Below, in pieces: positions 34,565 to 60,312 of a stretch of 64,000 bases of DNA. Made by a program: the position numbers and the translations under genes. The notes beneath the pieces were generated by a model. It did not search any database. It saw only the letters and a program-made list of their open reading frames with translations, and was not told the origin of the DNA. Numbering within the stretch: the first letter of the stretch is position 1; the number at the start of each line of letters is the position of its first letter. Source of the DNA: a virus; the IMG/VR virus record IMGVR_UViG_3300029554_000001. The stretch is one strand, 5' to 3'.

Positions 34565-34566
34565 TT

Positions 34567-35040: not shown

Positions 35041-35197
35041 ATATTAATTAAGATAGATACTCCATTGGTTAAGTCTACGTTTGTCTGGTTAAGCTCATTA
35101 CTTTACTGGTATCTTAGTAGGAAACCTATCAGGCTAGCATGAGGTCTCTACGGAGCGTGGGGTTTGATACCATTCATGCGTGAGTGGTATCATATAT

Positions 35198-35273: not shown

Positions 35274-35295
35274 TTAAATTTTATTTAATAAACAC

Positions 35296-35324
35296 TTGAC
35301 AAAGCGTTTGTTAGATGTTATAAT
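35296..35324 (+). promoter_or_regulatory. sigma70-like promoter
   Basis: TTGACA, 17 nt spacer, TATAAT. Confidence 0.65.
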
Positions 35325-35351
35325 TCAAAATGTAAAAAGGAAGTACGAAAA

Positions 35352-35798
35352 ATGACTGATATTACCCCTATCGTAGTTGCTGTAATTGGTTTGTGCTCTT
35401 TGATTTTTACAATCGTTCTTATTCCTTATCTTAAGAAGAAGGGTAAGTTGGACGATGTTAATCATGCTCTTACTCAAGCAGAACTTATTCATAAGTATGC
35501 TTTGATTGCAGTTAAGGCTGTTGAGCAGATGTTCCCTCGGGAAATTGAAAAGCGTTTACAGGAAGCAACAAAGTATTTTAATCGGCAGATGGAAGCTCTT
35601 GGTATTACTCTTGATGCAGATGAAGTTCGTAAGGCTATTGAAGCCGCTGTTTATGAGGTGAATCGTGAACTTCACGATGAAAAGTTGAAGGAGAGCCAGC
35701 TTCAAAATACCAATCCTGTTCCTTCGAATGACAAGATTGACAACACTGGTAATGTTATCCCTGATGAAGATACTGTAACTGAAGAAGCAGTAGGCTAA
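35352..35798 (+). CDS. N-terminally anchored membrane protein (LL-H holin-like)
   Basis: A single N-terminal TM (ITPIVVAVIGLCSLIFTIVLIPYL) followed by a charged helical tail. Functional call is weak. Confidence 0.6.
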   Translation: MTDITPIVVAVIGLCSLIFTIVLIPYLKKKGKLDDVNHALTQAELIHKYALIAVKAVEQMFPREIEKRLQEATKYFNRQMEALGITLDADEVRKAIEAAVYEVNRELHDEKLKESQLQNTNPVPSNDKIDNTGNVIPDEDTVTEEAVG

Positions 35799-35953
35799 GA
35801 TAATTTTCCTTTCTTATCTTAATAAATGTGTTGTTGAGACGCAATTACTCAGCGTCTATAAATAAGTTAAGTAACGTGAGGTTTGTTGGTAAAATACGTA
35901 AGTCCTTTCAGGAATGAAAAAAACCAATATTATTAAAATATAAGGAGGCTCTT

Positions 35954-36691
35954 ATGAAACATACTGTTATGGATTAGATTACAGATAAAGAATTTGAACA
36001 AATAGTTAAAAATTCTTATTCTTATCGAGAAGTAGCTGAAAAATGTGGGTATTGTTGTATAAGTGGAGCTTCTTCTAATATTGTGAAAAAGAGAATTTAG
36101 AAATTAAATTTAGATGTTTTTCATTTTAAAAAATCGCTTCATGTTTATCGACCAGATGATGAAATTTTTGTTGAGGATTCAAAAGTAGGGCAGACAGTTT
36201 TAAGAAAACGTTTTTTAGCCTTGAATGTAGTTGAATATAAATGTTCAATATGTGGATAGGAACCATTTTGGAATGGAAAGCCTTTATCGTTAACATTAGA
36301 CCATATAAATGGTAAAAACCATGATAACAGGTTTGACAATTTAAGGTGGGTTTGTCCTAATTGTGATAGATAGCTTCCCACTTTTGGACGGCGTAATGCT
36401 ATTCACGAAGCAAAATATAATTATTGTGTTGATTGTGGAATTGTTATTACTTTTAATGCAACAAGATGTAAAAAATGTGCAGATAAAGTTAAAGCAGAAA
36501 AACAAAAAAATATCAACAAACCAAACAGAGAAGAATTGAAAAAATTAATTAGAGAAAAGAATTTTTTAACTTTAGGAAAAGAGTTTAATGTCTCTGATAA
36601 TACTATTAGAAATTGGTGCGAAAGTTATAATCTTCCAAAAAAAACAAGAGAAATAAGATTAATAAAAGACCAAGATTGGGAATTTTTGTAA
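35954..36691 (+). CDS. HNH homing endonuclease (4 in-frame TAG)
   Basis: LDHINGKNHDNRFDNLRWVCPNCD (HNH), Zn ribbons, and a C-terminal HTH-like NTIRNWC. TAGs at 35975, 36098, 36257 and 36371; codon-by-codon check runs to TAA 36689. Confidence 0.8.
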
Positions 36692-36697
36692 TTAGAT

Positions 36698-36775
36698 GAG
36701 AGTATAGTTCAACTGGTTAGAATGCCGTCTTTACACGTCGGAGGCTTACAGGTTCGAGTCCTGTTACTCTCACCA
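36698..36775 (+). tRNA. tRNA-Val (anticodon TAC)
   Basis: GAGAGTA/TACTCTC, loop TTTACAC, ACAGG-TTCGAGT-CCTGT, ACCA. Confidence 0.85.
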
Positions 36776-36797
36776 TCAGACTTAAATTTAAACAAAA

Positions 36798-36921
36798 GTT
36801 GACACTCACAGCAAATTTATTTTATGTTTTTGGAATAACGTCGTGTAAGGTTCGACTCCTTATTAACAAATCCCTTGAGCAAGGAATAGTTAACCGTGGA
36901 TGGCTAGAAAAAAGTGTCAAG
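36798..36921 (+). ncRNA. ACAGCAA-stem module A (T-arm plus capped-hairpin payload)
   Basis: 5' G-TTGACACT-C-ACAGCAA ... AGTGTCAA-G 3' (8 bp, compensated variant of TAGAC/GTCTA). Payload is the T-arm TAAGG-TTCGACT-CCTTA (36846-36862) then the capped helix TTAAC...GTTAA. Confidence 0.7.
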
Positions 36922-36934
36922 ATTGCTCACTTAT

Positions 36935-37025
36935 GGAGTAGTAAGCCTAATTGGTAAGGCACCAGTTTGCTAAATTGGTAGTAGCTTGAAAGAGCGTACT
37001 GGTTCGAGTCCAGTCTACTTCGCCA
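36935..37025 (+). tRNA. tRNA-Ser (anticodon GCT), class II
   Basis: GGAGTAG/CTACTTC, CCAGT-TTGCTAA-ATTGG, long variable arm, ACTGG-TTCGAGT-CCAGT, GCCA. Confidence 0.85.
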
Positions 37026-37146
37026 CAGAATTTATTATAGCTGCTCGTAGTAAATTCGTAGTATTAGAAGCAGTAAAGGTACGAGTATGGTATCCGGCAC
37101 AGGAGTGGTCGTTAAGGGCGAGATAAAGCTGAACTCCTTTTTATAT

Positions 37147-37265
37147 CCCCATTAGTGTAATGGAGCATTCTCGTTAACTGACGTTGAGTAAACACTAAGG
37201 TAGCTCCTTAGTGATAACAGACACATCGGGAGAGGAAGTTGGTTCGAATCCAATTATGGGGTCCA
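37147..37265 (+). tRNA. tRNA-like gene with a 53-nt insertion in the anticodon loop (anticodon unresolved)
   Basis: Acceptor CCCCATT/TATGGGG (one mismatch), anticodon stem TCTCG (37169-73)/CGGGA (37227-31), T-arm GTTGG-TTCGAAT-CCAAT, TCCA. The insert contains an 8-bp hairpin CACTAAGG/CCTTAGTG. Confidence 0.55.
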
Positions 37266-37400
37266 GTAACCACGATACCGCCTTGAAAAAGGTCGTGGAG
37301 GTTCGCCTAACAGATGGAGTATCGCTTAATGTTAGGATGTGTATATGGCGCACCTAAGTTCAGACCGTTCAGAACCTACAACCATATTAGCGGTGACAGC

Positions 37401-37501
37401 TTGGAGAGACAGCAAATATGCGGCAACTGGTGTAATAATAAAAGTAGCCATGGACAATACTTTTATTATGTTTGGAGTTCGATTCTTCGATGCCGCTCCA
37501 A
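37401..37501 (+). ncRNA. ACAGCAA-led atypical tRNA-like RNA (module variant B)
   Basis: TTGGAG-AG-ACAGCAA-ATAT, then acceptor GCGGCAA/ATGCCGC, a 12-bp hairpin ATAATAAAAGTA/TACTTTTATTAT (loop GCCATGGACAA), T-arm TGGAG-TTCGATT-CTTCG, and T-CCA. The leader TTGGAG pairs with CTCCAA, overlapping the CCA. Confidence 0.5.
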
Positions 37502-37860
37502 AAGACAGAATGGTTAGATATTTCTTGATGTCTTCAAAAAACAAGAAATCCGTAAGGTCTGTACGAAACATTCCTTGGAATACAGTTTAGCTGGTTACAA
37601 TGTATTCGACACTGAACCGCCCTCCAAGTCTGATGGACTGGTAACAATAGAAAGACCGTTGCTTTGCTTAACTGGGTACGTTAAACCCTTATGCAATGAG
37701 CAAAACTGATAATGAAAATGACCAAGATAGTTGAGTGTAAGCCCCTTATAAGGAATAGCCTCTCCTCAGCCAAACCGAGGACAGATAAGTGAAAAGCTGG
37801 TCTGTCAGTAGTTATCAGTTTTTGTTCCTTATATATTTAATAAAATAAAAGGGTGTTTTT
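37502..37860 (+). ncRNA. ORF-free structured region (unknown RNA)
   Basis: GC-richer than the coding DNA. Long-range pairing AACTGATAA (about 37697)/TTATCAGTT (about 37812) and several local hairpins. Track ORFs here lack RBSs. Confidence 0.3.
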
Positions 37861-38181
37861 ATGGATTACATTGATAAGCAGTTTGCTAAACGTGGATATA
37901 AATTAGTACGTCAAAATGAATATGGCGCTTATTATGAAAGAAAAGATAATAAGTTTAATTATACAAGTGAGCTTGATATTATAGCCAAAGCAAATGGTAA
38001 GCATCTTGTTCAGTGTTATGATGCCCAAGTAGTTTATGGTCATCCTGAAAAGGATTCTAACAACTATCGTGTTATGAATGAAGTTGATGGAATTGATGCT
38101 TCTCTTTCTTTTTGGATTTGGTTAAAGTTTCATCAGCTTAAAAGAAAGTATAAATGGGATAAGGTGAAGAAACATGATTGA
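37861..38181 (+). CDS. Hypothetical protein
   Basis: 106-aa ORF after AAAAGGGTG. Confidence 0.6.
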   Translation: MDYIDKQFAKRGYKLVRQNEYGAYYERKDNKFNYTSELDIIAKANGKHLVQCYDAQVVYGHPEKDSNNYRVMNEVDGIDASLSFWIWLKFHQLKRKYKWDKVKKHD

Positions 38182-38446
38182 GACATATATTAAGAAGCCT
38201 GTTGCTGTTCAAGCAATTATTTGGACCGGCGATAATGAGGATGAAATTACAAGCTTTGTTGGTGCTCATTGTTGTGTTACGACAGAGCATACTATGAATG
38301 GCGTTAAGAAGAATCTTATTATGTATACTCTCGAAGGTTATCACTGTGCCTCTGTTGGCGATTATATTGTCAAAGGTATTAAGGGAGAATTTTATCCTGT
38401 TAAGCCTGATATTATGGAATTAACTTATGTTAAGGTGACTGAGTAA
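38174..38446 (+). CDS. Hypothetical protein
   Basis: Overlaps the upstream stop. Confidence 0.6.
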   Translation: MIETYIKKPVAVQAIIWTGDNEDEITSFVGAHCCVTTEHTMNGVKKNLIMYTLEGYHCASVGDYIVKGIKGEFYPVKPDIMELTYVKVTE

Positions 38447-38826
38447 TGGATACTTCTTTGTTTGAAATTGTTGGTCATTATTCTATTTGGACTGGTGAAA
38501 TTACTAAATTCCGAGTTGATGATATTCTAAGAGATAAAGAATTTAATTATTGGTATAAGATAGATTCTGAAACTATTGAATATCCTTGGGAAGTTCGTAT
38601 TTTAGATGCTACTCAAGTTTGGACTAATGCTGACTGTTATCAAGATAGTACATCAGGTAAATGGATTTATAGATGCATTCCTTATGACGGTTTAATCTTT
38701 ACCCTTGAAGCTAATTCTATGACAGAATTGGTAGACCTTATTAGAGATTTTGTTACTCCTCCTGAAGACATGGAAACTAAACTTGTTGCAAGTTCTAATT
38801 ATGATTGTTTTACTCAAAAGTTCTAA
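38446..38826 (+). CDS. Hypothetical protein
   Basis: TAATG coupling. Confidence 0.6.
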   Translation: MDTSLFEIVGHYSIWTGEITKFRVDDILRDKEFNYWYKIDSETIEYPWEVRILDATQVWTNADCYQDSTSGKWIYRCIPYDGLIFTLEANSMTELVDLIRDFVTPPEDMETKLVASSNYDCFTQKF

Positions 38827-38931
38827 TAAAGACTTGACAAAGATTTAAAAGTGTGGTAAGATAAATACATCTTAAGAGAAGAGAAAAACAAAAAACTTCT
38901 CAAAAAGACAAAAATAAATTTTAATAAGTGG

Positions 38932-38960
38932 TTGACATCTTAAAGATGATATGCTATAAT
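38932..38960 (+). promoter_or_regulatory. sigma70-like promoter (extended -10) driving an RNA cluster
   Basis: TTGACA, 17 nt spacer, TGcTATAAT. Confidence 0.65.
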
Positions 38961-38992
38961 AAGTGCATAAATAAAACCTCCTGAATAATAAA

Positions 38993-39109
38993 GTAGACTC
39001 TTACAGCAAATTTTCTAAAGGATAACACAATTGTCTTGAAAACAATCATTAGCGAGTTCGATTCTCGTCAGAGGGCGCTCTGTGGTGAATAATACGCAAA
39101 AGAGTCTAG
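38993..39109 (+). ncRNA. ACAGCAA-stem module 1 (anticodon-arm mimic, T-arm and capped helix)
   Basis: G-TAGACTCT-T-ACAGCAA ... AGAGTCTA-G. Payload is ATTGT-CTTGAAA-ACAAT (39030-39046; same loop as tRNA-Ser-TGA), T-arm GCGAG-TTCGATT-CTCGT, and the capped helix CAGAG-GGCG-CTCTG. Confidence 0.7.
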
Positions 39110-39121
39110 GTTAATTAATTT

Positions 39122-39197
39122 GGTCGGTTAGTCAAGTGGGCTAAGACACTGGCCTTTCACGTCAGTAGCACGGGTTCGAACCCCGTACCGACTACCA
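39122..39197 (+). tRNA. tRNA-Glu (anticodon TTC)
   Basis: GGTCGGT/ACCGACT, CTGGC-CTTTCAC-GTCAG, ACGGG-TTCGAAC-CCCGT, ACCA. Confidence 0.85.
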
Positions 39198-39370
39198 TTA
39201 TTCAAATCAGAAATCCGTTCTTATGATAGTGTGAGTAAGTTTTATCGGAATTAAATGAGGGGAACTTAAATCTATCGAAGGGTTAAGAAATAATTGTTTG
39301 ACGAAAAGTTGTTTCTCCTTTCTCTCTATCTGAGATGAATAATTTCCTTTCTGTAAGATGATATTGTAAA

Positions 39371-39504
39371 GTAGAGACTAACAGCAATTTTAAAATTATG
39401 TTAAAAAACCAAGCTCCCATTCTTCGGTTCGAATCCGAACGTCTTCAGTTGAAGTATGTAGCCAAGTGGTTTAAGGCAGGAGCCCATAATAACAATGTCT
39501 CTAG
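39371..39504 (+). ncRNA. ACAGCAA-stem module 2 carrying a circularly permuted tRNA-Gln-like body
   Basis: G-TAGAGAC-TA-ACAGCAA ... GTCTCTA-G. Internal order: GCTCC, var CATTC, T-arm TTCGG-TTCGAAT-CCGAA, acceptor 3' CGTCTTC, cap AGTTG, acceptor 5' AAGTATG, TA, D-arm GCC-AAGTGGTTTAA-GGC, A, GGAGC. Confidence 0.7.
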
Positions 39505-39511
39505 TATTTAT

Positions 39512-39588
39512 GCCCGTGTAGCTCAGTTGGTAGAAGCATTTGCCTTTTAAGCAAAGGGTCGAGAGTTCGAGTCTCTCCACGAGCACCA
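39512..39588 (+). tRNA. tRNA-Lys (anticodon TTT)
   Basis: GCCCGTG/CACGAGC (C3.A70 mismatch), TTTGC-CTTTTAA-GCAAA, GAGAG-TTCGAGT-CTCTC, ACCA. Confidence 0.85.
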
Positions 39589-39604
39589 AAAGCATTAGTA
39601 CATT

Positions 39605-39669
39605 GTAGACGCTTACAGCAATTTTAATTGTACTTATCTGTTAAATAAGAATACACAAAAAGCGTCTAG
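39605..39669 (+). ncRNA. ACAGCAA-stem module 3 (65 nt; bare anticodon-stem-loop mimic, GUU loop)
   Basis: G-TAGACGCT-T-ACAGCAA ... AGCGTCTA-G. The apical hairpin CTTAT-CTGTTAA-ATAAG (39633-39649) has the same 7-nt loop as tRNA-Asn at 40971. Confidence 0.7.
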
Positions 39670-39696
39670 CCCCTTTCTAAAGGAGAACAATTAAAT

Positions 39697-39781
39697 GGGT
39701 GAGTAGTGAATCGGCAAACACGCTTGACTGTAAATCAAGTTCCTGACGGAGTAGAAGGGTCGGCACCTTCCTCACCCACCA
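39697..39781 (+). tRNA. tRNA-Tyr (anticodon GTA), class II, unusual T-loop
   Basis: GGGTGAG/CTCACCC, CTTGA-CTGTAAA-TCAAG, long variable arm, T-arm GAAGG-GTCGGCA-CCTTC (G replaces T54), ACCA. Confidence 0.8.
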
Positions 39782-39807
39782 ATTTAAAATTTAAAGGAGA
39801 AAATATT

Positions 39808-39978
39808 ATGGGTTTTATGGGAGAAATTTCAGAAAATATTGGTTGGAATGATTGTATTAATTATCTTCTAAAAAATGTTGATAAATTTCAATCAACTTTA
39901 GAAGGTGGAGCTTATGATTATTTTCCAAATGATGAAATTAAAGAAATTTTAAAGAATTTAATTAGACCGGAAATCTAA
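39808..39978 (+). CDS. Hypothetical small protein
   Basis: RBS AAAGGAG before ATG 39808. The upstream part of the track ORF overlaps tRNA-Tyr. Confidence 0.55.
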   Translation: MGFMGEISENIGWNDCINYLLKNVDKFQSTLEGGAYDYFPNDEIKEILKNLIRPEI

Positions 39979-40000
39979 TAAAATTTTTGTTTTAAAACTC

Positions 40001-40029
40001 TTGACAAAATGAAAATTTTATGCTATAGT
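40001..40029 (+). promoter_or_regulatory. sigma70-like promoter (extended -10)
   Basis: TTGACA, 17 nt spacer, TGcTATAGT. Confidence 0.65.
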
Positions 40030-40106
40030 AAAAATATGATAAAGATACAAATTTATTTGTAAGCTAATTGTTCATTTTTTATTGTTCATAAAAGCATTCC
40101 TTTCAA

Positions 40107-40237
40107 GTAGACTCTAACAGCAACTTTACAATCACAAATGCTAAGGACCTGTTTGTTGGAGGTTCGAATCCTTCACTCCCGACCATCGGGAGTTAGCTCA
40201 ACGGATAGAGCAACAGATTTTGTAAAAATGAGTCTAG
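40107..40237 (+). ncRNA. ACAGCAA-stem module 4 carrying a circularly permuted tRNA with encoded ACCA
   Basis: G-TAGACTC-TA-ACAGCAA ... GAGTCTA-G with a second helix TTTACAA/TTGTAAA. Internal order: CCTGT, TTGTT, T-arm GGAGG-TTCGAAT-CCTTC, acceptor 3' ACTCCCG, A-CCA-T, acceptor 5' CGGGAGT (perfect 7 bp), TA, D-arm GCTC-AACGGATA-GAGC, A, ACAGA. Confidence 0.75.
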
Positions 40238-40292
40238 TTAATAAATTGACGCTCCTATTTTCTTCAAATAGGCAAATATAAATTCCTTTCAA

Positions 40293-40410
40293 GTAGACAC
40301 GTACAGCAAAATTACTTGATGCTTTAATGTGGAAAATTAACGATAAGGTTCGACTCCTTAATCTTCTTTAGAAGATGCGTGGTTGCTGGAAATCAAAAAA
40401 ACGTGTCTAG
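40293..40410 (+). ncRNA. ACAGCAA-stem module 5 (anticodon-arm mimic GGA, T-arm and capped helix)
   Basis: G-TAGACACG-T-ACAGCAA ... CGTGTCTA-G. Payload is TTAAT-GTGGAAA-ATTAA (40324-40340), T-arm TAAGG-TTCGACT-CCTTA (identical to module A), and ATCTTCT-TT-AGAAGAT. Confidence 0.7.
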
Positions 40411-40419
40411 GTTAAATAT

Positions 40420-40504
40420 GGCTGAGTGGCGAAATTGGCATACGCAGTTGCTTCAAGTACAACCCTCGAAAGAGATGTGGGTTCAAGTCCCACCTCAGCT
40501 ACCA
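40420..40504 (+). tRNA. tRNA-Leu (anticodon CAA), class II
   Basis: GGCTGAG/CTCAGCT, loop TTCAAGT, long variable arm, GTGGG-TTCAAGT-CCCAC, ACCA. Confidence 0.8.
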
Positions 40505-40970
40505 TAATTGCATCTCAATTGGCAGATAGCGAATGCAATTTATATTAAACTGCCCGATTCAGCAAGGATGGCTAAAGCCTTGTCGGTGCTCCATATATTT
40601 GAACTCATTTTTAGTCCGTTAAGCTAAAACCCTCTCTCCCGACCGAAGAAGGTGTAGAATACAAGTTAATGGTATTCGAATGGGAAGAACACCAACTATA
40701 AGATAAGGCAACTTACCAAGGTGCAAATATGGCAAGAAAACCTTTTGGACGAAATTGGTGCCGTGCTTACGGGGATAGATAGTTGCGCATCTATCTAAAC
40801 AAAAACTCTGATTACTGCAACTAAATCGGGGTAGGTATTGAGGTTATGGGTCATGTAACCTTAAAACACAATAAGCCGAGCATACTGCTTATTGCTCCTA
40901 ACAGGTGGTGCTGAGGATGAACAACAAAAGCCAAGTTATAGAGTTCTTGTAAAAAACTCTATTGTTATTT
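40505..40970 (+). ncRNA. ORF-free ~465-nt structured region (unknown RNA)
   Basis: No ORF in any frame in the track. GC-richer than flanks. Local helices include ATTGCAT/ATGCAAT and GATAGAT/ATCTATC. Confidence 0.3.
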
Positions 40971-41047
40971 GGAAGTATAGCTCAGTTGGCTAGAGCGCTT
41001 GGCTGTTAACCAAGATGTCACAAGTTCAAGTCTTGTTATTTCCGCCA
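40971..41047 (+). tRNA. tRNA-Asn (anticodon GTT)
   Basis: GGAAGTA/TATTTCC, CTTGG-CTGTTAA-CCAAG, ACAAG-TTCAAGT-CTTGT, GCCA. Confidence 0.9.
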
Positions 41048-41048
41048 A

Positions 41049-41125
41049 AAGTGGAGGGTGTAGGTTCGAGTCCTGCCCTGCTCGTGGGAAACCCTTGCAG
41101 GAAGCTGCTAGGTACAGCGCCACTT
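41049..41125 (+). ncRNA. Circularly permuted tRNA-like domain (no ACAGCAA stem)
   Basis: Closing stem AAGTGG/CCACTT. Order: var AGGGT, T-arm GTAGG-TTCGAGT-CCTGC, capped helix CCTGC...GCAGG, AA, D-arm-like GCTG-CTAGGTA-CAGC, G. Starts 1 nt after the CCA of tRNA-Asn. Confidence 0.5.
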
Positions 41126-41181
41126 AGAATTTCTTTCACCTTATTACGCGAAATATGGGATTGAGATGTTGCTTTAGTCGG

Positions 41182-41207
41182 GTTCTTTTACAGCAGAAAA
41201 TAAGAAC
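41182..41207 (+). ncRNA. Minimal hairpin bearing a TTACAGCAG loop (possible degenerate module)
   Basis: GTTCTT-TTACAGCAGAAAAT-AAGAAC. Confidence 0.3.
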
Positions 41208-41399
41208 GCACCTGTTTAATTGGGTTTTTTAGTTCAGTAAAAACAAGAAAAACCTCGGTTGTTTAGAAATTTTCTTCTGATATTGAATGAAAACATTTAG
41301 AGAATTCTCTCATTGCAATGCCGAAAGGTAGCAAGATATGAAAACAGCTAATTGGTGAACATATTTGCTACCGAGTAGGGATAAGAGAGAATTAAATAT

Positions 41400-41475
41400 G
41401 CTTTGGTAGCTCAATTGGTAGAGCAGTGGACTGAAAATCCACGTGTAGCCAGTTCGATTCTGGCCTAAAGCACCA
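41400..41475 (+). tRNA. tRNA-Phe (anticodon GAA)
   Basis: GCTTTGG/CTAAAGC, GTGGA-CTGAAAA-TCCAC, GCCAG-TTCGATT-CTGGC, ACCA. Confidence 0.9.
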
Positions 41476-41476
41476 T

Positions 41477-41560
41477 TGCTGGCGAGTGAAACGGATATAT
41501 AAATCACGCTTGGCTCATACCCAAGTAATAGTGGGTTCGACTCCCATGCTTCAGCAACCA
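41477..41560 (+). tRNA. tRNA with CAT anticodon (Met or Ile2), irregular acceptor/T junction and oversized D-loop
   Basis: CTTGG-CTCATAC-CCAAG is a perfect anticodon arm. T-arm GTGGG-TTCGACT-CCCAT. Acceptor TGCTGGC/TTCAGCA has 2 extra nt (GC) after the T-stem. ACCA. Confidence 0.55.
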
Positions 41561-41584
41561 AAAAATAAAAGGAAGTAAATTCTA

Positions 41585-41893
41585 ATGACTATTAATTTTA
41601 AGATTTACATTTATTAGACAGCAAATAATAAAAAGTTTGTTTATAGATGTCCTCATTGTAATAAAGGGATAATGCAAGTAGCAGAAACTAAAACTGCTAA
41701 AGATGAAACTAATTTTTTATCTTGGAATTATACTTGCCCAGTTTGTAAGAAGCAGATTGTCTCTATTGAAAAAGACGGTTGTTCTTCTTTTAAAAGTGTG
41801 TTCCCTCCAATGACTCAAATTAGTGATAAAGAATTTACTGATATTAAAAAGGATGTAGGAGAGAAGGGTATTTATCTATTCTCTGAAACATAA
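41585..41893 (+). CDS. Zn-ribbon protein (1 in-frame TAG)
   Basis: ATG 41585 and TAG 41615 are in frame with the track ORF at 41672. CPHC...CPVC. Confidence 0.55.
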
Positions 41894-43950: not shown

Positions 43951-44110
43951 AGGGGTGTAGCCAAGCGGTAAGGCAAGGGACTTTCAAGAATTAATTCAAG
44001 TAGAATCCAGTGGATTAGTTTAAAGACTGTTTCGACGGTATATTGGTTCAAGTCCAATATTCTTGACCAGACTCCCTGACTCGAAGGTTCAAATCCTTCC
44101 ATCCCTGCCA
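43951..44110 (+). tRNA. tRNA-Gln (anticodon TTG) interrupted by a 85-nt tRNA-like insert
   Basis: AGGGGTG/CATCCCT, Gln-type D-arm GCC-AAGCGGTAA-GGC, anticodon stem AGGGA (43976-80)/TCCCT (44073-77), GAAGG-TTCAAAT-CCTTC, G73, CCA. Loop halves CTTT (43981-84) and GAC (44070-72) sum to CTTTGAC. Confidence 0.75.
43985..44069 (+). tRNA. Nested tRNA-like gene inside the tRNA-Gln anticodon loop
   Basis: Perfect acceptor CAAGAAT/ATTCTTG, TA, D-arm ATTC-AAGTA-GAAT, stem CAGT/ACTG with a 14-nt loop, T-arm ATTGG-TTCAAGT-CCAAT, then A-CCA. Confidence 0.6.
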
Positions 44111-44139: not shown

Positions 44140-44284
44140 GTAGACGCTTACAGCAAACAATAATAAAATCAAATTCTAGTAAAAAAGATATAAATTAATA
44201 TTTAAAAAAGATTTTGGGTATTGTTCCTTGCTAATTAGTTTATGATGCTTTCATGATTCTCCTTTGTTAGTATTATGCGTCTAG
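44140..44284 (+). ncRNA. ACAGCAA-stem module 6 (AT-rich ~120-nt payload)
   Basis: G-TAGACGC-TT-ACAGCAA ... GCGTCTA-G. Confidence 0.6.
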
Positions 44285-44414: not shown

Positions 44415-44479
44415 GTAAACCCTTACAGCAATTTAACTACTTAATTTTTGCTTGAAAAAAGATTATGGATAGGGTTTAG
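44415..44479 (+). ncRNA. ACAGCAA-stem module 7 (65 nt)
   Basis: G-TAAACCCT-T-ACAGCAA ... AGGGTTTA-G (G>A in the 5' strand compensated by C>T in the 3' strand). U/A-stem hairpin containing the CTTGAAA string (44451-57). Confidence 0.65.
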
Positions 44480-44495: not shown

Positions 44496-44585
44496 GTAGA
44501 CACTAACAGCAATTTTAAAAAGTATTCTATATATATATTAAAATGCCAAAATTTAATTGTACATATTAACTTTTAAAGTGTCTAG
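44496..44585 (+). ncRNA. ACAGCAA-stem module 8 (AT-rich payload)
   Basis: G-TAGACACT-A-ACAGCAA ... AGTGTCTA-G. Confidence 0.6.
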
Positions 44586-44595: not shown

Positions 44596-44731
44596 AGGAC
44601 GGTAGCTTAATCGGTTTAAGCCTCCGACTTATCTGAGAGTAGTTTAAAAGTAAAACTGTTAATGTAAGTGCAAGACTTGCCTTTCAGACCAAATCGGAAG
44701 ATTGTGAGTTCGAGTCTCACCCGTCCCACCA
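44596..44731 (+). tRNA. tRNA-Ile (anticodon TAT) interrupted by a 59-nt minihelix insert
   Basis: AGGACGG/CCGTCCC (A1.C72 mismatch), D-arm GCTT..AAGC, anticodon stem TCCGA (44623-27)/TCGGA (44694-98), GTGAG-TTCGAGT-CTCAC, ACCA. Loop halves CTTAT (44628-32) and AA (44692-93) sum to CTTATAA. Confidence 0.75.
44633..44691 (+). ncRNA. Nested acceptor-stem/D-arm minihelix ending in ACCA
   Basis: CTGAGAG/CTTTCAG (7 bp, one G.U), TA, GTTT-AAAAGTA-AAAC, short hairpin, then A-CCA. Confidence 0.55.
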
Positions 44732-44749: not shown

Positions 44750-44819
44750 GTAGACTCTTACAGCGATTACTTAGAGACTTGTGATGTGGGATTACATATG
44801 TTTTGAAAAATGAGTCTAG
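44750..44819 (+). ncRNA. ACAGCAA-stem module 9 (loop variant ACAGCGA)
   Basis: G-TAGACTC-TT-ACAGCGA ... GAGTCTA-G with internal hairpin TGTGAT-GTGGG-ATTACA. Confidence 0.6.
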
Positions 44820-44934: not shown

Positions 44935-45005
44935 GCGGCGTAGTATAATGGTCAATGCGCACGGCTCTAACCCGTGAAATGCTCGTTCGATTCGAAGTCG
45001 CCGCT
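44935..45005 (+). tRNA. Candidate amber-suppressor tRNA (anticodon CTA)
   Basis: Perfect anticodon arm CACGG-CTCTAAC-CCGTG (44960-44976). Acceptor GCGGCG/CGCCGC, TA, D-arm GTA-TAATGGTCAA-TGC. T-loop TTCGATT with an imperfect stem GCTCG/CGAAG. No encoded CCA. Confidence 0.6.
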
Positions 45006-54423: not shown

Positions 54424-54679
54424 TGGAGTTAAACTGTATAATGAACGTGTAACGAAAGAATTCCTTAAGTATCGTAAGGTTCGTCGTATTTATTGCAGTG
54501 ATTGTGATGTTGAAATGAAGCTGGGTGAAATGAATTATACTACTTATGCTACTTATCCGCCCATTTATGAGTTTGTATGTCCCAAGTGTAATCACAAAAT
54601 GACTTCTTCTGTTATGTATCCTGTAATTGAAGAAGTTTGGGAAAATGAAGATGATATGAAAAGAGAGGTAATGGACTAA
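54413..54679 (+). CDS. Zn-ribbon protein (GTG start)
   Basis: GGAGGA lies 8 nt before GTG 54413. CSDC...CPKC. Confidence 0.55.
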   Translation: MNTNGVKLYNERVTKEFLKYRKVRRIYCSDCDVEMKLGEMNYTTYATYPPIYEFVCPKCNHKMTSSVMYPVIEEVWENEDDMKREVMD

Positions 54680-55635
54680 TGAGCAATATTAAGACTTACC
54701 AGAATGGCAACTATGTCGTGACCATCGACTTGGATAGCGGAACCAAGACTCGTGAAAATGATTTGAGCTTTTTCAAGGCTGATTTTCCAGAGTGCTGTGA
54801 TTATAAAATTACTAATAATTGCGCACAGGGTTGTAGTTTTTGCCATGAGAACAGCACTCCTAATGGTAAGCATGGCGATATTCTCGGTGAACAGGGTATC
54901 AAGGTTCTTGAAAGTTTCCATGAATACACCGAGCTTGCAATCGGAGGTGGAGACCCCCTTTCTCACCCTGATTTGATTCCGTTCCTTCGCAAGTGCAAAG
55001 AGTTGAATCTTATTCCCAATATTACGGTTCATCAGTTTGAATTTATGAAGAATCAGGAACTCATTGAACAGCTTGTTAATGAAAAGCTCATCTATGGTAT
55101 TGGTGTCTCTCTTGTTGACCCTCTTCAGCCGCAGTTTCTCAAAACTATTTCTAAGTATCCCAATCTTGTTCTCCATGTCATTAATGGTATTGTGACGATG
55201 GATACTCTTCGTACTCTTAAGAATCGTGGGCTTAAGATTCTTATTCTTGGCTACAAGACAGTTCGTCGTGGTGAAGAGTATGTTAAGGAAGATTGGGCTA
55301 AGGAACTTGTAGCAAATAAGCAGAAGGCAATCTATGACAATCTTGGTCGCATGATTGATGAAAAGTGGTTCTCTGTTATTAGTTTTGACAATCTTGCTAT
55401 TAAACAGCTTGAGCCTAAGCGTCTTATGTCTGAGGAAGATTGGAATACTATGTATATGGGTGAAGACTATGATAATATGTCTAGTGCTTCTATGTACATT
55501 GATGCAGTAGAAATGCAATTTGCTTGTAACTCTTGTGATGTAAATCATCGTTATGATGTTGGCAATAAGACTGTTACTGAAATGTATCAGTTCTTGAGGG
55601 ATTTAAAGGAGAATAGCAATGAAACAGATTCGTAA
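54679..55635 (+). CDS. Radical SAM enzyme
   Basis: CAQGCSFC (CX3CX2C) near the N-terminus, plus GGGDPL. Confidence 0.75.
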   Translation: MSNIKTYQNGNYVVTIDLDSGTKTRENDLSFFKADFPECCDYKITNNCAQGCSFCHENSTPNGKHGDILGEQGIKVLESFHEYTELAIGGGDPLSHPDLIPFLRKCKELNLIPNITVHQFEFMKNQELIEQLVNEKLIYGIGVSLVDPLQPQFLKTISKYPNLVLHVINGIVTMDTLRTLKNRGLKILILGYKTVRRGEEYVKEDWAKELVANKQKAIYDNLGRMIDEKWFSVISFDNLAIKQLEPKRLMSEEDWNTMYMGEDYDNMSSASMYIDAVEMQFACNSCDVNHRYDVGNKTVTEMYQFLRDLKENSNETDS

Positions 55636-56203
55636 GAATGTATTCGAAACTAATTCTAGCTCTTGTCATTCACTTGTTATTTCAAAAGATAATTATGGTC
55701 CAGAACATATTCCAGCTTATTTAAATTTTAATGCGGATGAAGATTATGGTTGGGACAGATGTTGTTACTCTTCCACAGAAGATAAAGCTTCTTATCTTTA
55801 CACTGCTATGCTTAATTGTGATATGTTTGCTCAAGCAAAAGATTTTAAGCGTAAACTTGAAGAAGATTTTAAGATTAAAATTTTCGTCCCCACCTATAAA
55901 AGAGAGACAAGTAAATATGGTGGTTGGGAATTTTGGGATTGTAGCGGTTCTGTAGACCATGCAGGAGAACTTGTTCCCTTTATTAATGAAATTCTTGAAG
56001 ACGATGATAAATTGAAGCGTTTCCTTTTCGACCCAAAAAGTTGTATTTATACTGGCAATGATAATGGTTGCAACCCTGATGACAATTGTTATGTTGCTGA
56101 TGTAGATGAAAATGGTGAACATTACGATTGGGACATTGAAAAAAATGTTAAACATCCTCTTTGGGATGGAGAACATTATGAATATTACTTTAAGGGGAAT
56201 TAA
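55619..56203 (+). CDS. FETNSSSxH-family protein, paralogue 4
   Basis: N-terminus MKQIRKNVFETNSSSCHSLVI, later GSVDHAGE. Overlaps the 3' end of the radical SAM gene. Confidence 0.7.
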   Translation: MKQIRKNVFETNSSSCHSLVISKDNYGPEHIPAYLNFNADEDYGWDRCCYSSTEDKASYLYTAMLNCDMFAQAKDFKRKLEEDFKIKIFVPTYKRETSKYGGWEFWDCSGSVDHAGELVPFINEILEDDDKLKRFLFDPKSCIYTGNDNGCNPDDNCYVADVDENGEHYDWDIEKNVKHPLWDGEHYEYYFKGN

Positions 56204-56205
56204 TA

Positions 56206-56580
56206 ATGAATAACACAGGAGATTATTATCCCGTTAAAGGATATTGTAATGAAAAAGGCATTTCTTGTGAATATGCTAATATTAGAGGATATTGTGGTTT
56301 AACTGCGTGCTTGAAGCATAATTCTGTTCAGTTGAATAATACATCTGATTTTAGTTTAAATTTTTCTCGCTCTGAAAAATCTAAGATGTTTATTAAACTT
56401 GAGCCAAAAGAATTTAACATGCAGAAAAATTTTGATGATACAGTTAATTTAAATTTTACTCTGCCTATTATAAATCAGGATTCTAATGAAGAAACTGGTA
56501 CTTTAAAAGTAAAAATTCCTCGTGCTAAATATGAATTCGAAAAAGGTGGAATTAAAATTTTTCTCTTAAAATCTGAGTAA
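56206..56580 (+). CDS. Hypothetical protein
   Basis: 124-aa ORF directly after paralogue 4. Confidence 0.6.
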   Translation: MNNTGDYYPVKGYCNEKGISCEYANIRGYCGLTACLKHNSVQLNNTSDFSLNFSRSEKSKMFIKLEPKEFNMQKNFDDTVNLNFTLPIINQDSNEETGTLKVKIPRAKYEFEKGGIKIFLLKSE

Positions 56581-56609
56581 GGGTATAATTGGGTATAAGA
56601 GGGTATAAT

Positions 56610-57080
56610 ATGGTTGATATTAAATGGCTTTAGACTCAAGAAGGATAGAAAGCTTATTAGACTTGGATAAGGAAATTAGCAAACCGAGCAGAAGATAGGA
56701 CAGATATTCCAATTTTAGTAGATACCAACGGAGAAATTTAGGTTTGGGTAACAATAAATAAAAAATATCTATCTAAAGAGCAATTTGAAAAACTTGCTGA
56801 TAAATCTGATGGTGAAATTACTACAAAATTAGAATTTAAAACAAAAGATATTATTATAAGAGAGCTTACTTCTATCGCAAAGAGCAGAGAGGCTTTAGCA
56901 GATAATGAAGATGAAAGAGAACTTTTATGTCCCCTTGTTTCATTGTTTCAAGGAATAGAAGATGCTATTACTAATGATATTTGCTATAAAGCTCAAAATG
57001 CTAAACAGCTTTTTATAAACAATTTCGAAAAAAATTTAGGAAAAAACGAAAATAATTCTAATAACCTCTTGACAAACTAA
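56610..57080 (+). CDS. Hypothetical protein (4 in-frame TAG)
   Basis: 156 codons from ATG 56610 to TAA 57078, with TAGs at 56631, 56646, 56658 and one further downstream. No other stop in frame. Confidence 0.55.
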
Positions 57081-57097
57081 GATACATCTGTTATAGT
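57069..57097 (+). promoter_or_regulatory. sigma70-like promoter for the module-10/Ro-like transcript
   Basis: TTGACA (57069-74), 17 nt spacer, TATAGT (57092-97). Confidence 0.65.
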
Positions 57098-57114
57098 ATC
57101 TATTGTCATAAGTA

Positions 57115-57177
57115 GTTAGACTCTCACAGCAAACTACAAAAAACTTTTATTTTGGAAAAAGGACAAAAAGAGTCTAG
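57115..57177 (+). ncRNA. ACAGCAA-stem module 10, in the 5' leader of the Ro60-like gene
   Basis: GT-TAGACTCT-C-ACAGCAA (57117-57132) ... AGAGTCTA-G (57169-57177). Followed by the hairpin TCCTTT-AGA-AAAGGA (57178-57192), which includes the AAGGAG RBS. Confidence 0.65.
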
Positions 57178-57199
57178 TCCTTTAGAAAAGGAGAAAATT

Positions 57200-58930
57200 A
57201 TGTATAACTACAACAATCCTAACAAGAAGAATAACACTAAGGCTTGGGCTCCTAAGCCTGAAAAGCCTGTTACTAAGTCCAACCGAGTTAGCCGTAAGGC
57301 TTCTTTCATGGACAAGGTTGAGAATACTGCCAAGGGCTACTACACTCAGGTTGCAATTCCTTCTCTTCCTGCTGATAAGCAGTACACTTCTAATGGTGCT
57401 ATTGCCTACAAGTCCTCTGGTTCTGCTCTTCTTGATATCAATACTTCCATTACCGCTCTTCGTAGTCTTCCTGATGGTAATATTGTGAAGAAGTTCCGTG
57501 CAGCTTATTCTGAGAATCCTCGTCTCGCTATTCGTTGGCTGTTCTATGCTGGCGATATCCGTGAGGGTCAGGGTGAGCGCCGTCTCTTCCAGATTTGCCT
57601 TAAGGATATGATGAACAATGGTGGTGCTCAGATTGTGGCGAACCTGATTCCTATGATTCCTGAGTATTCTCGTTGGGATTATATCTATGTTGTCATGGAT
57701 AATCCTACTACTAAGCCTGTTGTTCGTGAACTGATTCGTAAGCAGTGGAAGGAAGATATGGCTAATATGAAGAAGGGCAAGTCCATTAGCCTTATGGCGA
57801 AGTGGCTTGATAGTGCTTCTTCTCACAGCCATGATACTCGTAAGCGTGGTCTTAAGACTATGGATATGCTCGGTCTGACTGAACGTGAGTATCGTAAGGG
57901 GCTGTCTGCTCTCCGTAAGCACCTTGATGTTGTTGAGCGTAAGATGTCTTCTCAGAATTGGCAGAGCATTAATTACGAGACTGTTCCTTCTAAGGCAAAC
58001 CTTAATTACAACAAGGCTTTCCTTCGTAATGATGAGGAGCGCCGTCGTGCCTATTTGAACGCTCTTACTAAGGGCGAGGCAAAGATTAATTCTTCCGTAT
58101 CTAATCCTTGTGACATTGTTCACAAGTATTGCGAGAATGATTGGGGTACTTCTCCTCATTCTTATGATGCCGCCCTTGAAGGCATGTGGAAGGCTCTTCC
58201 CAATCTTGTAACCGATGATAGTTCCACTATTGTTGTTGCCGATGGTTCTGGTTCTATGTGTGCTACCGTGGGTCGTACTCGTATGACTGCTCTTGAGGTT
58301 GCTAACTCTCTTGCAATTTACTTTGCAGAGCGTGCTAAGGGTGCATACAAGGGTCGTTACATTACTTTCTCTGCACGTCCTCAGATGGTTAATGTTAATC
58401 ATGACTCTTTGCGTGCAAATCTTAGAGAAGCTGCTCGTCATAGTGAGGTTGCTAATACCAACCTTGAAGCAGTATTTGACCTGATTCTTGATACTGCAAT
58501 TAAGAATCATTCTCCTCAGAGTGATTTGCCTAAGAATATTCTGATTATCAGTGATGGTGGTTGGGATTCTATGGTAAATATCCGTAATGTTAGCACTGGC
58601 AGTAATGGTTACGGTGGTTATGGTTATTGGGGTTATAACAGCACTCGTGCTACTGCTAAGGAAGCTCCTGCTTTCCTTAAGTCCATTGAGCAGAAGTACA
58701 AGAACGCTTCCTATGAGTGTCCAAAAATTTGTTTTTGGAATGTGTGCGGAAATGGTAACACTAATAATGGTCTTCCTATGACCAAGAATGACTATGGTAT
58801 CATGGTCAGCGGGTTTAGTGTTCAAACTTTGAAAATGATTCTCAGTGGCAAGACTAATCCTTGGGATGCACTTATGGAAGTGGTCTTGGATAAGCGTTAT
58901 GACAAGATTGAGGAGCTTGCTTTTAAGTAA
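57200..58930 (+). CDS. Ro60-like protein: helical N-domain (DUF2828/TROVE-like) plus vWA domain with MIDAS
   Basis: GAIAYKSSGSALLD, ENPRLAIRWLFYAGDIREGQGERRLF, MIDAS VVADGSGSM. C-terminal ICFWNV...NNGLP...YGIMVSGFSVQTLKMI parallels Ro60 LIVCGM..NGF.IADP.DRGMLDMCGFDTGALDVI. Confidence 0.65.
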   Translation: MYNYNNPNKKNNTKAWAPKPEKPVTKSNRVSRKASFMDKVENTAKGYYTQVAIPSLPADKQYTSNGAIAYKSSGSALLDINTSITALRSLPDGNIVKKFRAAYSENPRLAIRWLFYAGDIREGQGERRLFQICLKDMMNNGGAQIVANLIPMIPEYSRWDYIYVVMDNPTTKPVVRELIRKQWKEDMANMKKGKSISLMAKWLDSASSHSHDTRKRGLKTMDMLGLTEREYRKGLSALRKHLDVVERKMSSQNWQSINYETVPSKANLNYNKAFLRNDEERRRAYLNALTKGEAKINSSVSNPCDIVHKYCENDWGTSPHSYDAALEGMWKALPNLVTDDSSTIVVADGSGSMCATVGRTRMTALEVANSLAIYFAERAKGAYKGRYITFSARPQMVNVNHDSLRANLREAARHSEVANTNLEAVFDLILDTAIKNHSPQSDLPKNILIISDGGWDSMVNIRNVSTGSNGYGGYGYWGYNSTRATAKEAPAFLKSIEQKYKNASYECPKICFWNVCGNGNTNNGLPMTKNDYGIMVSGFSVQTLKMILSGKTNPWDALMEVVLDKRYDKIEELAFK

Positions 58931-58995
58931 GTTTTAAATATAAAAGGGGGAAGGGAATTATTCTCTTCTCCTTTTTTGCCTATAAAGGAGTGAAA

Positions 58996-60312
58996 ATGGA
59001 AACTGTAAAGCAAAATAAACAATTAATGGAAATTTGGGATACAGAAGAAAATAAAAAACAAAATATTTTCCCCGAAAATATTTCTTTGGGAAGTTCTAAA
59101 ATAAAAATAAACTGGAAAGATAAATATGGTCATAAATGGCAAAGAGCTGTTTCTGTATAGTTAAGAGCAAAAAATATATGCCCCATTTGTGCTAATAAAA
59201 AAATAATAAGAGAAAATAGCTTTGCTACTCTTTATCCAGAGATTTTAAAAGACTGGGATTATGATAAAAATACAATATCGCCATTTAATATTTCTCCAAA
59301 ATCAGGTCGAAAAGTTTGGTGGAAGTGTTTTATTTGTGGATTTAATTGGTAGACCAGAGTAAGCCATAGAACACAAAATGGAACTGGTTGTCCTGAATGC
59401 TCTAAAAGCATAATTTCACAGAAAAAATAGGCAACTGATTATTAGCATAGTTTGGCTAATCTTTATCCTTAGTTATTATCAGAGTGGGATTATAATAAAA
59501 ATGATAAAAAACCATCAGAAATTTATGCCCATTCTTCTTATAACGCATGGTGGAAATGCGAATTTGGGCATTCTTGGTAGGCGAAAGTACATTCTCGAAC
59601 AAGAGAAAAACCTGCTGGATGTCCAATTTGTCTAAAAAGATATTGTAGCAGTTTTCCAGAGTAGGCTATTTATTATTACTTTTAGTAGGTAACTAAAACT
59701 ATTAATAGAGATTAGAGCTTTGGAAGAGAAAAAGAAATAGATATTTATTGCCCAAAATTAAAAATTGGAATAGAATATAATCGGTCATTTTTCCATCAAA
59801 ATGAAAAAACAGAAGATAAAATTAAGTTCTTTAAAGAAAAAGGCATTAGACTAATTGTTGTTACAGATGCAAAAGAGAACAAAGTAGATAATGATTGTAT
59901 TTATCATAAAGAGACAGATGAGGATTTATCTTGGGCTATTAAAGAAATTTTTAAAATAATTCAAATAGAACCTCCATTAATTGATATTGGCAAAGACAGA
60001 AATTCTATTTTGGATAACTATATGTTTTCCATGAAAGAAAAAAGTTTATTAGCTAAAGTACCTGATGTTATATATCAATGGGATTATGAAAAAAATTACC
60101 CTTTAAAACCAGAATAGTTTTTACCACAGAGTCGTTTTGAAGCTAATTGGAAATGCTCAAATCGGCATTTATGGAAGCAAAGAATTTGTAATAAAGTAAC
60201 TCATCAAAATGGAAAATATCATATCTCTCAATGTAGCATCTGTAAACCAATTAAAGGTGGATTTAAATTGTCCCCGTTTGCCACTGAACTAACTTATGAA
60301 AGAGAGGGGTAA
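58996..60312 (+). CDS. Homing-endonuclease-like protein: repeated treble-clef Zn ribbons plus Vsr/PD-(D/E)xK-like core (11 in-frame TAG)
   Basis: Repeats WxCxxGHxW..(x)..R....GCPxC. FPEQAIYYYF and EIDIYCPKLKIGIEYN..FFH. 438 codons checked one by one: 11 TAG, no TAA or TGA before 60310. Confidence 0.75.

Follow-up and report, generated by a model that had tools for sequence, protein, structure and literature searches.

A phage transcription unit for a Ro60-like DUF2828 protein and its candidate Y-RNA-like partner RNAs

We analyzed a 64,000-nt stretch of viral DNA (IMG/VR record IMGVR_UViG_3300029554_000001; hereafter the window, to the whole of which all coordinates refer), in which a first-pass annotation had proposed a phage Ro60/Y-RNA system: a gene for a Ro60-like protein carrying in its leader one copy of a small RNA module that recurs in a tRNA array upstream. 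Ro60/Y-RNA particles form an RNA-surveillance system that has long been studied and whose function is unsettled, and we know of no phage RNAs defined beyond those of the canonical, TROVE-type examples. A megablast search of the GenBank phages with positions 56000-60000 gives no match, and the phage is uncultured. The gene lies in a compact unit on the + strand, 57069-58977, made up of the following elements, namely:

57069..57097, + strand: sigma-70-type promoter, TTGACA-17-TATAGT with a TG extended -10, matching 11 of 12 consensus positions
57117..57177, + strand: leader Y-like module of the short type, 61 nt, whose architecture is kept in relatives
57178..57192, + strand: hairpin TCCTTT-AGA-AAAGGA, overlapping the Shine-Dalgarno sequence AAGGAG (57188-57193)
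57200..58930, + strand: gene for the DUF2828+DUF7788 protein, ATG at 57200, 576 aa plus stop
58942..58977, + strand: probable intrinsic terminator, with a 16-bp hairpin that leads into a run of U (-18.7 kcal/mol, z = -3.3)

The promoter, the hairpin over the ribosome-binding site (RBS) and the open reading frame (ORF) are all present as the first-pass annotation had described them, as is the leader module, given there as 57115-57177; every sequence motif that it quoted is found in the ORF or the leader. The terminator is missed by a simple pattern scan and was found by folding. In the leader module, the 5′ strand TAGACTCT (57117-57124) pairs with the 3′ strand AGAGTCTA (57169-57176), and between them lie ACAGCAA (57126-57132) and an A/U-rich loop; a terminal G follows at 57177. 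The leader as a whole folds no more stably than its shuffles (z = -1.0; the module alone, z = -2.4). Thermodynamic stability was thus dropped as evidence for the leader, and the support for leader and module structure is comparative. The promoter is conserved among relatives, and promoter, module and hairpin all persist in those with 92, 85 and 75% protein identity. The RBS hairpin is retained only at 75% identity or above, shows no compensatory change, and is absent in more distant relatives. At 54-56% identity, the leader element has different complementary stems, namely: TATGCCT..ACAGCAA..AGGCATA-G and CGACCG..TCAGCAA..CGGTCG-AG.

The gene also differs from its surroundings in composition. 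Its G+C content is 0.44-0.46 at 57500-58500 (0.39-0.46 over the gene overall) vs. 0.29-0.34 in the flanks, and its codon choice is markedly different, with many CTT, CCT, GCT and TCT. This bias could reflect high expression or recent acquisition.

The encoded protein scores well above the Pfam gathering cut-offs for DUF2828 (PF11443; 113.0 bits vs. 29, E = 2e-32), a membership that the first-pass annotation had suggested, and for DUF7788 (PF25043; 113.1 bits vs. 27.1, E = 1.5e-32), which resembles the von Willebrand factor A (vWA) domain. Both domains are present in all listed homologues. The ORF holds NPRLAIRWLFYAGDIREGQGERRLF at aa 106-130, and PHROGs places the protein in PHROG 850, ‘RNA-binding protein’ (E = 2e-116). 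The predicted MIDAS (metal ion-dependent adhesion site) of a C-terminal vWA domain is indeed found: DGSGS occupies aa 348-352 and agrees with the vWA pattern DxSxS...T...D, and an alignment of 60 homologues shows no variation at D348, S350, T420 and D452 and at least 90% conservation at S352.

The AlphaFold2 model derived from this alignment has a mean predicted local distance difference test (pLDDT) score of 70, falling below 50 at aa 247-300. Its comparison with the PDB using Foldseek, a check suggested by the first-pass annotation, returns full-length Ro60 as the top three matches (2i91_A, 9nep_A and 9nfa_A; E = 9e-7 to 1e-5, 600-607 aligned columns, template modeling (TM) scores 0.41-0.49), and the remaining matches cover the vWA domain only, with E > 0.01. 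In the predicted structure, an alpha-helical (HEAT-like) domain precedes the C-terminal vWA domain, and the whole can be superposed on full-length Ro60. The modest TM-scores are unsurprising because solved Ro60 structures differ among themselves by a root-mean-square deviation of 5.8-6.5 Å (PMC12135203). At the sequence level, no TROVE domain is detected by Pfam at E ≤ 0.1, and neither phmmer nor a profile of 60 sequences finds a Ro60 chain among the PDB sequences at E ≤ 10. The Ro60-type C-terminal pattern that had been proposed does not fit literally, since the segment reads G-I-M-V-S-G-F-S with one variable position in place of two; a phmmer search with this segment likewise finds no Ro60 chain, and the motif parallel is therefore at best weakly supported. 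Hence, the proposal of a Ro60-like helical-plus-vWA protein holds for the fold and fails for the sequence: as modelled, the window protein is a DUF2828/DUF7788 member that is Ro60-like by fold and non-TROVE by sequence.

The family is large. tblastn finds matches in 695 phage records, annotated as DUF2828, vWFA, RNA-binding, ‘Ro-like RNA binding protein’ or hypothetical, and the family is present in giant viruses too. A511 gp57 and gp55 of mycobacteriophage cluster L belong to it, at 31-32% identity across 88-89% of the protein. For CKA15_055, from a P100-like Listeria phage, the best HHpred match is Rsr (PMC12282133), and Bas63 gp130 has structural similarity to Ro60 (PMC11482910); these two are tied to the window protein by kind of phage (Listeria phages and Felixounavirus, both with homologues), not by alignment. 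In one close relative (IMG/VR contig 3300045988_170802), the protein match spans 2523 nt (locus positions 5001-7523) instead of about 1680, which suggests that this gene carries an insertion, possibly an intron, intein or homing element.

The claim that ten further modules lie in the tRNA array is borne out, with the motif far above chance. GTAGACNCTNACAGCAA with up to 3 mismatches has 12 matches in the window vs. 1.1 expected, and 11 of these are modules. In each of the 11, a Watson-Crick complement of 7-8 bp to the 8 bases past the first G lies 50-135 nt downstream and is followed by a G. A strict structural scan of the window returns exactly 11 modules, all on the + strand; allowing one motif mismatch adds 4 matches vs. 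1-6 in shuffles, and these were set aside as background. Besides the leader copy, the modules lie between tRNA genes at 36.8-44.8 kb, namely:

36798..36921, + strand: long module, tRNA-like (T arm, hairpin, D-like arm), stem TTGACACT/AGTGTCAA
38993..39109, + strand: long module with T arm and closed hairpin, the first element after a promoter at 38919-38965
39371..39504, + strand: long module with T arm, hairpin and D arm, stem TAGAGAC/GTCTCTA
39605..39669, + strand: short module, fold z = -3.6, followed by a copy of the leader hairpin, a Shine-Dalgarno sequence, ATG and tRNA-Tyr
40107..40237, + strand: long module with a YrlA-like domain at 40131-40229 (Rfam YrlA, 42.2 bits), minimum free energy fold z = -3.3
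40293..40410, + strand: long module with T arm and closed hairpin, stem TAGACACG/CGTGTCTA
44140..44284, + strand: long module without a recognisable T loop, with motif and closing stem
44415..44479, + strand: short module, stem TAAACCCT/AGGGTTTA
44496..44585, + strand: module of intermediate length, stem TAGACACT/AGTGTCTA
44750..44819, + strand: short module with the variant motif ACAGCGA and closing stem

Every module has the same handle, i.e. a terminal stem of 7-8 bp, ACAGCAA 1-2 nt past its 5′ strand, an A-rich 3′ side and an unpaired G. The stems differ between copies by compensatory changes, as seen in the modules at 36798, 39371, 40293 and 44415. The ACAGCAA complement is not enriched inside the modules; pairing of the motif within the module was accordingly dropped, and ACAGCAA is most likely single-stranded. 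The ‘ACAGCAA stem’ that had been taken as the handle thus survives as a conserved terminal stem plus ACAGCAA, with the motif beside the stem and not within it. The interiors are either short A/U-rich loops (modules of 61-90 nt) or long (117-145 nt). In five of the long modules, a T arm that has a GGTTCGAnTCC loop precedes a closed hairpin. Three of them (36798, 39371 and 40107) have a clear D arm in the order T arm-hairpin-D arm, which is the YrlA order, and in the other two (38993 and 40293) the D arm is degenerate. The module at 40107-40237 has the T arm GGAGGUUCGAAUCCUUC, an acceptor hairpin CUCCCG-ACCAU-CGGGAG and a D arm, and its hairpin loop, ACCAU, reads like a tRNA 3′ end joined to a 5′ end. 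Directly after the short module at 39605-39669, CCCCTTTCTAAAGGAGAACAATTAAATG at 39670-39700 is a near copy of the leader hairpin, Shine-Dalgarno sequence and ATG; it opens only a 3-codon ORF, which runs into tRNA-Tyr (39697), and it looks like a duplicated leader.

Gene and modules occur together across phages. The exact motif occurs more than once in each of 15 IMG/VR contigs, and the gene is present in all but one of these (14), the exception being a 53-kb fragment; relatives with modules and without the gene had been named in advance as the observation that would speak against a joint system. We further examined 80 IMG/VR loci, taken as 5 kb on either side of the homologues. ACAGCAA is found 366 times on the gene strand, vs. 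42 times on the other strand and 56 in shuffles, and closed handles 160 times vs. 2 and 1, respectively. At least one handle is present in 70 of the 80 loci, mostly no more than a few hundred bases upstream of the gene. The handle consensus is (A/U)AGAC(A/G)C-NN-ACAGCAA ... G(Y)GUCU(U/A)-G, and in a scan that did not require it, a G directly follows the 3′ strand in 126 of 130 distinct modules. Since a covariation count on handles selected by the scan would be circular, we relied instead on the closure rate relative to the opposite strand and shuffles, on the unselected G and on RNAalifold. Given 11 long modules drawn from 7 phages, the latter predicts terminal stem, T arm and hairpin start, with compensatory changes in 15 of 16 pairs.

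Seven cultured phages whose proteins are about 30% identical to the window protein have the same element beside the gene and on the same strand: a 7-bp stem, 2 nt, ACAGCAA, an interior, the 3′ strand and G. The copies number 5 in Bacillus phage PK-3, 3 each in Listeria phage A511, mycobacteriophage Winky and Staphylococcus phage CF9, 2 each in E. coli phage JH2 and Campylobacter phage CP8, and 2-3 in Enterococcus phage 21C1. Long copies with a T arm-hairpin-D arm interior occur in PK-3, JH2, Winky and 21C1, at least one in each. Winky and CF9 have their modules downstream of the gene and without an adjoining tRNA array, and the 7.4-kb Winky locus is without any tRNA. Conversely, the first 50 kb of T5, with a tRNA array and stable RNAs, contain neither a DUF2828 homologue nor the handle. 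The distal five stem positions are near-fixed within each genome (UAGAC here, UGGAC in Winky, AGGAA in A511 and AGACC in JH2), whereas the inner pairs vary and are compensated, a pattern that fits recognition by a phage-encoded reader.

Some loci depart from this arrangement. Vibrio phage QD01 has a weaker variant, ACGACAT-tat-ACAGCAA (locus L135, 4945-4990), 28 nt before the gene; its sole complement, ATGTC, overlaps the start codon, with the Shine-Dalgarno sequence in the loop, and this weak handle could couple folding or binding to translation. In three other loci (L172 4651-4773, L180 7481-7603 and L181 7511-7630), the handle surrounds a tRNA body whose arms follow the usual order (D arm, anticodon-like arm, T arm), so that it replaces the acceptor stem and the permuted YrlA order is not used.

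With regard to known RNA families, the Rfam YrlA model (RF02553) matches 40131-40229 over its full length (positions 1-114) with 42.2 bits and E = 7.6e-7 in 8.7 kb. A terminal stem like that of YrlA, with compensatory changes, is found in all 11 modules. In Winky module 2 (21.7 bits), the terminal stem and 5′ bulge of the model align to the handle and ACAGCAA, with the AUGC bulge placed on UACAGCAAU. At gathering thresholds, Rfam finds tRNAs only in the window, and at permissive E-values Rfam 15 places no family over the handle in the window, A511, PK-3, JH2 or Winky. A YrlA RNA would be expected on the strand of the Ro gene and no more than about 4 kb away from it; here all modules share the gene's strand, the adjacent leader copy is of the short type and the tRNA-like copies lie 17-20 kb upstream, and in the other phages such copies are within 0.1-3 kb of the gene. 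Outside the handle modules, 41052-41122, directly after tRNA-Asn, gives a weak YrlA match (22.8 bits, E = 0.31) with a T arm and then a hairpin. As judged from their sequences, the RNAs share the YrlA architecture, fail its score threshold and are without its binding motif.

We consider it probable that the region is a transcription unit for a divergent Ro60-like DUF2828/DUF7788 protein and that the 11 Y-RNA-like modules are its RNA partners. The core of the first-pass reading, a phage Ro/Y-RNA system, is supported by the fold match, the covarying modules and the gene-module linkage; its regulatory detail is unproven. Several results weigh against this interpretation. The structural model is of moderate quality with modest TM-scores to Ro60, and the TROVE domain is undetected by sequence. 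The best YrlA score is below the gathering score of 69 bits, and the other four tRNA-like modules miss even E = 5 with that model. The canonical Ro60-site motif, GNCGAAN0-1G, is absent and ACAGCAA stands in its position in every module. The tRNA-like copies lie 17-20 kb upstream of the gene, and 3 of 10 cultured phages (Vibrio QD01, Erwinia Kaldavass and Staphylococcus Alsa_3) have no strict handle within 5 kb. Finally, co-occurrence does not prove that it is the DUF2828 protein, rather than another conserved factor, that reads the handle.

From the anatomy, covariation, fold similarity and co-occurrence observed, we infer how such a system may operate. In bacterial Y RNAs, a terminal stem with a motif past its 5′ strand is the protein site, and the rest is a variable module that in one class mimics tRNA (PMC4201824). 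The terminal stem and motif of the handle match this anatomy, and by analogy we take the DUF2828 protein as the putative handle binder. The array copies share promoters with the tRNAs; all ten would be co-transcribed with them and may be freed by tRNA-processing nucleases. The 7-bp stem with its unpaired G would imitate a tRNA acceptor stem with its discriminator base, and the tRNA-like interiors could engage tRNA-recognising enzymes or nucleases. The particle might then act in tRNA or RNA surveillance, repair or decay during infection; it might repair RNA or monitor its quality, control an exoribonuclease or take part in counter-defence. The leader copy would provide one co-expressed partner RNA per mRNA and, because it abuts the RBS, may in addition enable the protein to dampen translation of its own mRNA.

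Elsewhere in the window are genes for an Rnl1-type RNA ligase, a kinase, a Thg1-like enzyme and a nucleotidyltransferase. These belong to an RNA-repair-type gene set (7622-9981, 14553-15368, 29521-30354, 34091-35040 and 27025-28284) with an AAA_33/KTI12-like kinase, a T4 Rnl1-type ligase, a nucleotidyltransferase, a Thg1-like tRNA 5′-end enzyme and two phosphatases inside the tRNA array, plus a PARP+WGR protein.

The alternative that survives best assigns the leader module mainly to translational control in cis: the protein would bind the handle by the sequestered RBS and repress itself, with the array copies as competitors or decoys. Such an operator is compatible with the partner-RNA interpretation and differs in making feedback the main purpose of the leader copy. 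The handle ends one base ahead of the hairpin masking the Shine-Dalgarno sequence; among the distinct loci listed, about two thirds have a last handle whose end is 8-52 nt ahead of the estimated start codon; in the 54-56% relatives, which have no hairpin, it ends 0-5 nt before a Shine-Dalgarno-like purine run (AGAAAGGA in locus L005 and GAATGGAG in L007); and the weak QD01 handle would hold the Shine-Dalgarno sequence inside it and base-pair to the start codon. On the other hand, every module in Winky and CF9 is downstream of the gene, the PK-3 handle is 85 nt from the start, and the same hairpin follows the module at 39605, where there is no real ORF. The RBS hairpin itself lacks compensatory changes and is lost in distant relatives, and the leader fold, as described above, is no more stable than shuffles. 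Autoregulation via the RBS hairpin, as originally suggested, is thus weakly supported at best. Feedback by the handle is a possibility that we rate clearly below an even chance, and co-expression of a partner RNA is the safer reading of the leader copy.

Alternatively, the modules could be punctuation or processing signals of polycistronic tRNA transcripts for host RNases, with the proximity to DUF2828 arising from shared siting at tRNA arrays. This would account for the position of 10 of the 11 copies between tRNA genes, for the DUF2828 genes that adjoin tRNA arrays in PK-3, JH2, A511, 21C1 and CP8, and, conceivably, for the resemblance of the stem and single unpaired base to an acceptor end. 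We find it unlikely. The modules follow the gene and not the tRNAs in Winky and CF9, and the part of the large T5 tRNA array that was covered has none. The hosts span Actinobacteria, Firmicutes, Gamma- and Epsilonproteobacteria, and across them ACAGCAA is invariant and the distal stem is phage-specific, which fits a phage-encoded reader better than a host RNase. Moreover, five modules contain elaborate tRNA mimics that a cleavage signal does not need. That the modules are decayed tRNA genes or selfish repeats without function, and the protein a generic vWA protein unrelated to RNA, is highly improbable: the long modules do hold tRNA-derived arms, and tRNA-like fragments and insertion-bearing tRNAs abound in the region, but motif, covarying stems and 3′ G are strictly conserved across phages with distantly related proteins, ACAGCAA is strongly biased to the gene strand, and the fold match to Ro60 is full-length and reaches beyond the vWA domain.

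Compared with known systems, the partner-RNA interpretation has its closest parallel in bacterial Ro60 (Rsr) with YrlA/YrlB, as in Salmonella Typhimurium and Mycobacterium smegmatis (PMC4201824). The two have in common a protein of the ring-plus-vWA/MIDAS type, several small RNAs on the same strand, a terminal stem closing the RNA, a conserved motif just past its 5′ strand (PMC4201824), a division into long RNAs that contain a permuted tRNA-like domain and short ones that do not, and RNA-repair genes nearby. They differ in that the window protein is DUF2828/DUF7788 and non-TROVE with no sequence-level match to Ro60, that its RNAs have ACAGCAA and a 3′ G instead of GNCGAAN0-1G and score below the YrlA threshold, and that the copies number eleven, of which one sits in the leader and the others are scattered over a tRNA array at a distance of 12-20 kb from the gene.

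TROVE-type phage Ro60/Y-RNA pairs are known from 22 phages (PMC4201824) and from Thermus phage phiLo (PMC12135203). The phiLo particle is an established precedent for a phage Ro particle and binds host PNPase (PMC12135203). Its phiRo60 protein with Yrl1/Yrl2 (PMC12135203; PDB 9KOP and 9L5Y) resembles the window system as a phage Ro-type protein with Y-like RNAs just upstream. However, phiRo60 is presented as a Ro60 homologue that a database search had identified (PMC12135203), it is not among the sequence or fold matches to the window protein, and the phiLo paper reports neither an ACAGCAA handle nor a tRNA-array setting (PMC12135203).

A plausible functional model, by analogy, is the Rsr-Yrn1-PNPase complex (RYPER) of Deinococcus radiodurans, in which a Y RNA tethers the ring protein to an exoribonuclease. 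Some DUF2828-associated modules elsewhere have the D arm-anticodon-like arm-T arm order, opposite to that of YrlA, and the arm orientation of Yrn1 is likewise noted as reversed (PMC4201824). RYPER differs in protein family and RNA motif.

The ‘Ro-like RNA binding proteins’ of DUF2828 type (CKA15_055, A511 gp57, Bas63 gp130 and cluster L gp55) are similarly encoded next to tRNA genes. For CKA15, abundant upstream non-coding transcripts have been speculated to be Y RNAs, and the protein was found in virion preparations (PMC12282133); for Bas63, some ‘tRNAs’ have been speculated to be Y RNAs (PMC11482910), and gp130 counters the ppl defence system (PMC11482910). These papers on cultured phages define no RNA partner (PMC12282133, PMC11482910), and the handle supplies candidates. 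In A511, a match to the ROOL RNA (87.5 bits, E = 1.6e-16; gathering score 99.1) at 1459-2010 of the locus (26196-26747 of the record) sits between the tRNAs and the handle modules, upstream of gp57. If the two genomes are collinear, it coincides with the most abundant ‘non-coding’ region of CKA15, 26,236-26,727, which is unnamed in PMC12282133.

The stable RNAs of the T5 tRNA cluster (RNA1, RNA2, RNA3, RNAI, III, IV and X) are also small, stable, in some cases tRNA-like and set among tRNA genes. In contrast to the modules, none has the handle, and the 50 kb tested have no DUF2828 homologue. In its record, the T5 tRNA region (28000-41600) has eight ‘stable RNAs with unknown functions’, of which some resemble tRNAs and none has the handle.

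Our literature search found no functional paper naming DUF2828, PF11443 or DUF7788 and no description of the handle, which may be described in literature beyond that search. What is new here are the handle RNAs for the DUF2828 type; Ro/Y-RNA particles and TROVE-type phage pairs were known. A more far-reaching and doubtful proposal is that, across hundreds of phages that carry tRNAs and infect Firmicutes, Actinobacteria and Proteobacteria, DUF2828 proteins and the ACAGCAA-handle RNAs make up a ribonucleoprotein system of their own, separate from Ro60/Y RNA and parallel to it. In such a system, acceptor-end mimicry by the 7-bp stem and unpaired G would lead the tRNA-processing machinery to excise the RNAs; the tRNA mimics would serve against defences of the host that sense tRNAs and RNA or attack them, at which Bas63 gp130 and its action on ppl hint, or would reprogramme RNA decay in the host; and through the leader copy the protein would limit its own synthesis. 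The reach of DUF2828 includes model and therapeutic phages, namely: Felixounavirus, A511/P100-like, Campylobacter CP8-like and cluster L mycobacteriophages. A simple, searchable handle turns this reach into concrete candidate partner RNAs and explains unannotated gaps in phage tRNA regions. It can now be tested whether the abundant non-coding transcripts of CKA15 include handle RNAs, and what Bas63 gp130 needs against ppl. The modules also suggest that tRNA mimicry by Ro-type particles arose or diversified beyond the YrlA family.

The tRNA array of the window has further unusual members. With introns allowed, aragorn finds three tRNA-like genes (37147-37265, 43951-44110 and 44596-44731) with insertions of 46-85 nt in the anticodon region; two of these genes reach 49 bits against the Rfam tRNA model across 133-157 nt. 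One insertion contains its own T-arm-like hairpin, and insertions this short are unusual in phage tRNAs. Two tRNAs are suppressor-like: 44935-45005 has the anticodon cta (amber, called tRNA-Pyl), and 44596-44731, with an insertion, has tca (opal, called tRNA-SeC); they may hint at stop-codon recoding in this phage. Between the array and the DUF2828 unit, four paralogous ORFs (starts at 49400, 51100, 52139 and 55619) open with MKQIRKNVFETNSSS. One is in PHROG 28997 (function unknown), and one adjoins a radical-SAM gene (54679-55635) just upstream of the DUF2828 unit.

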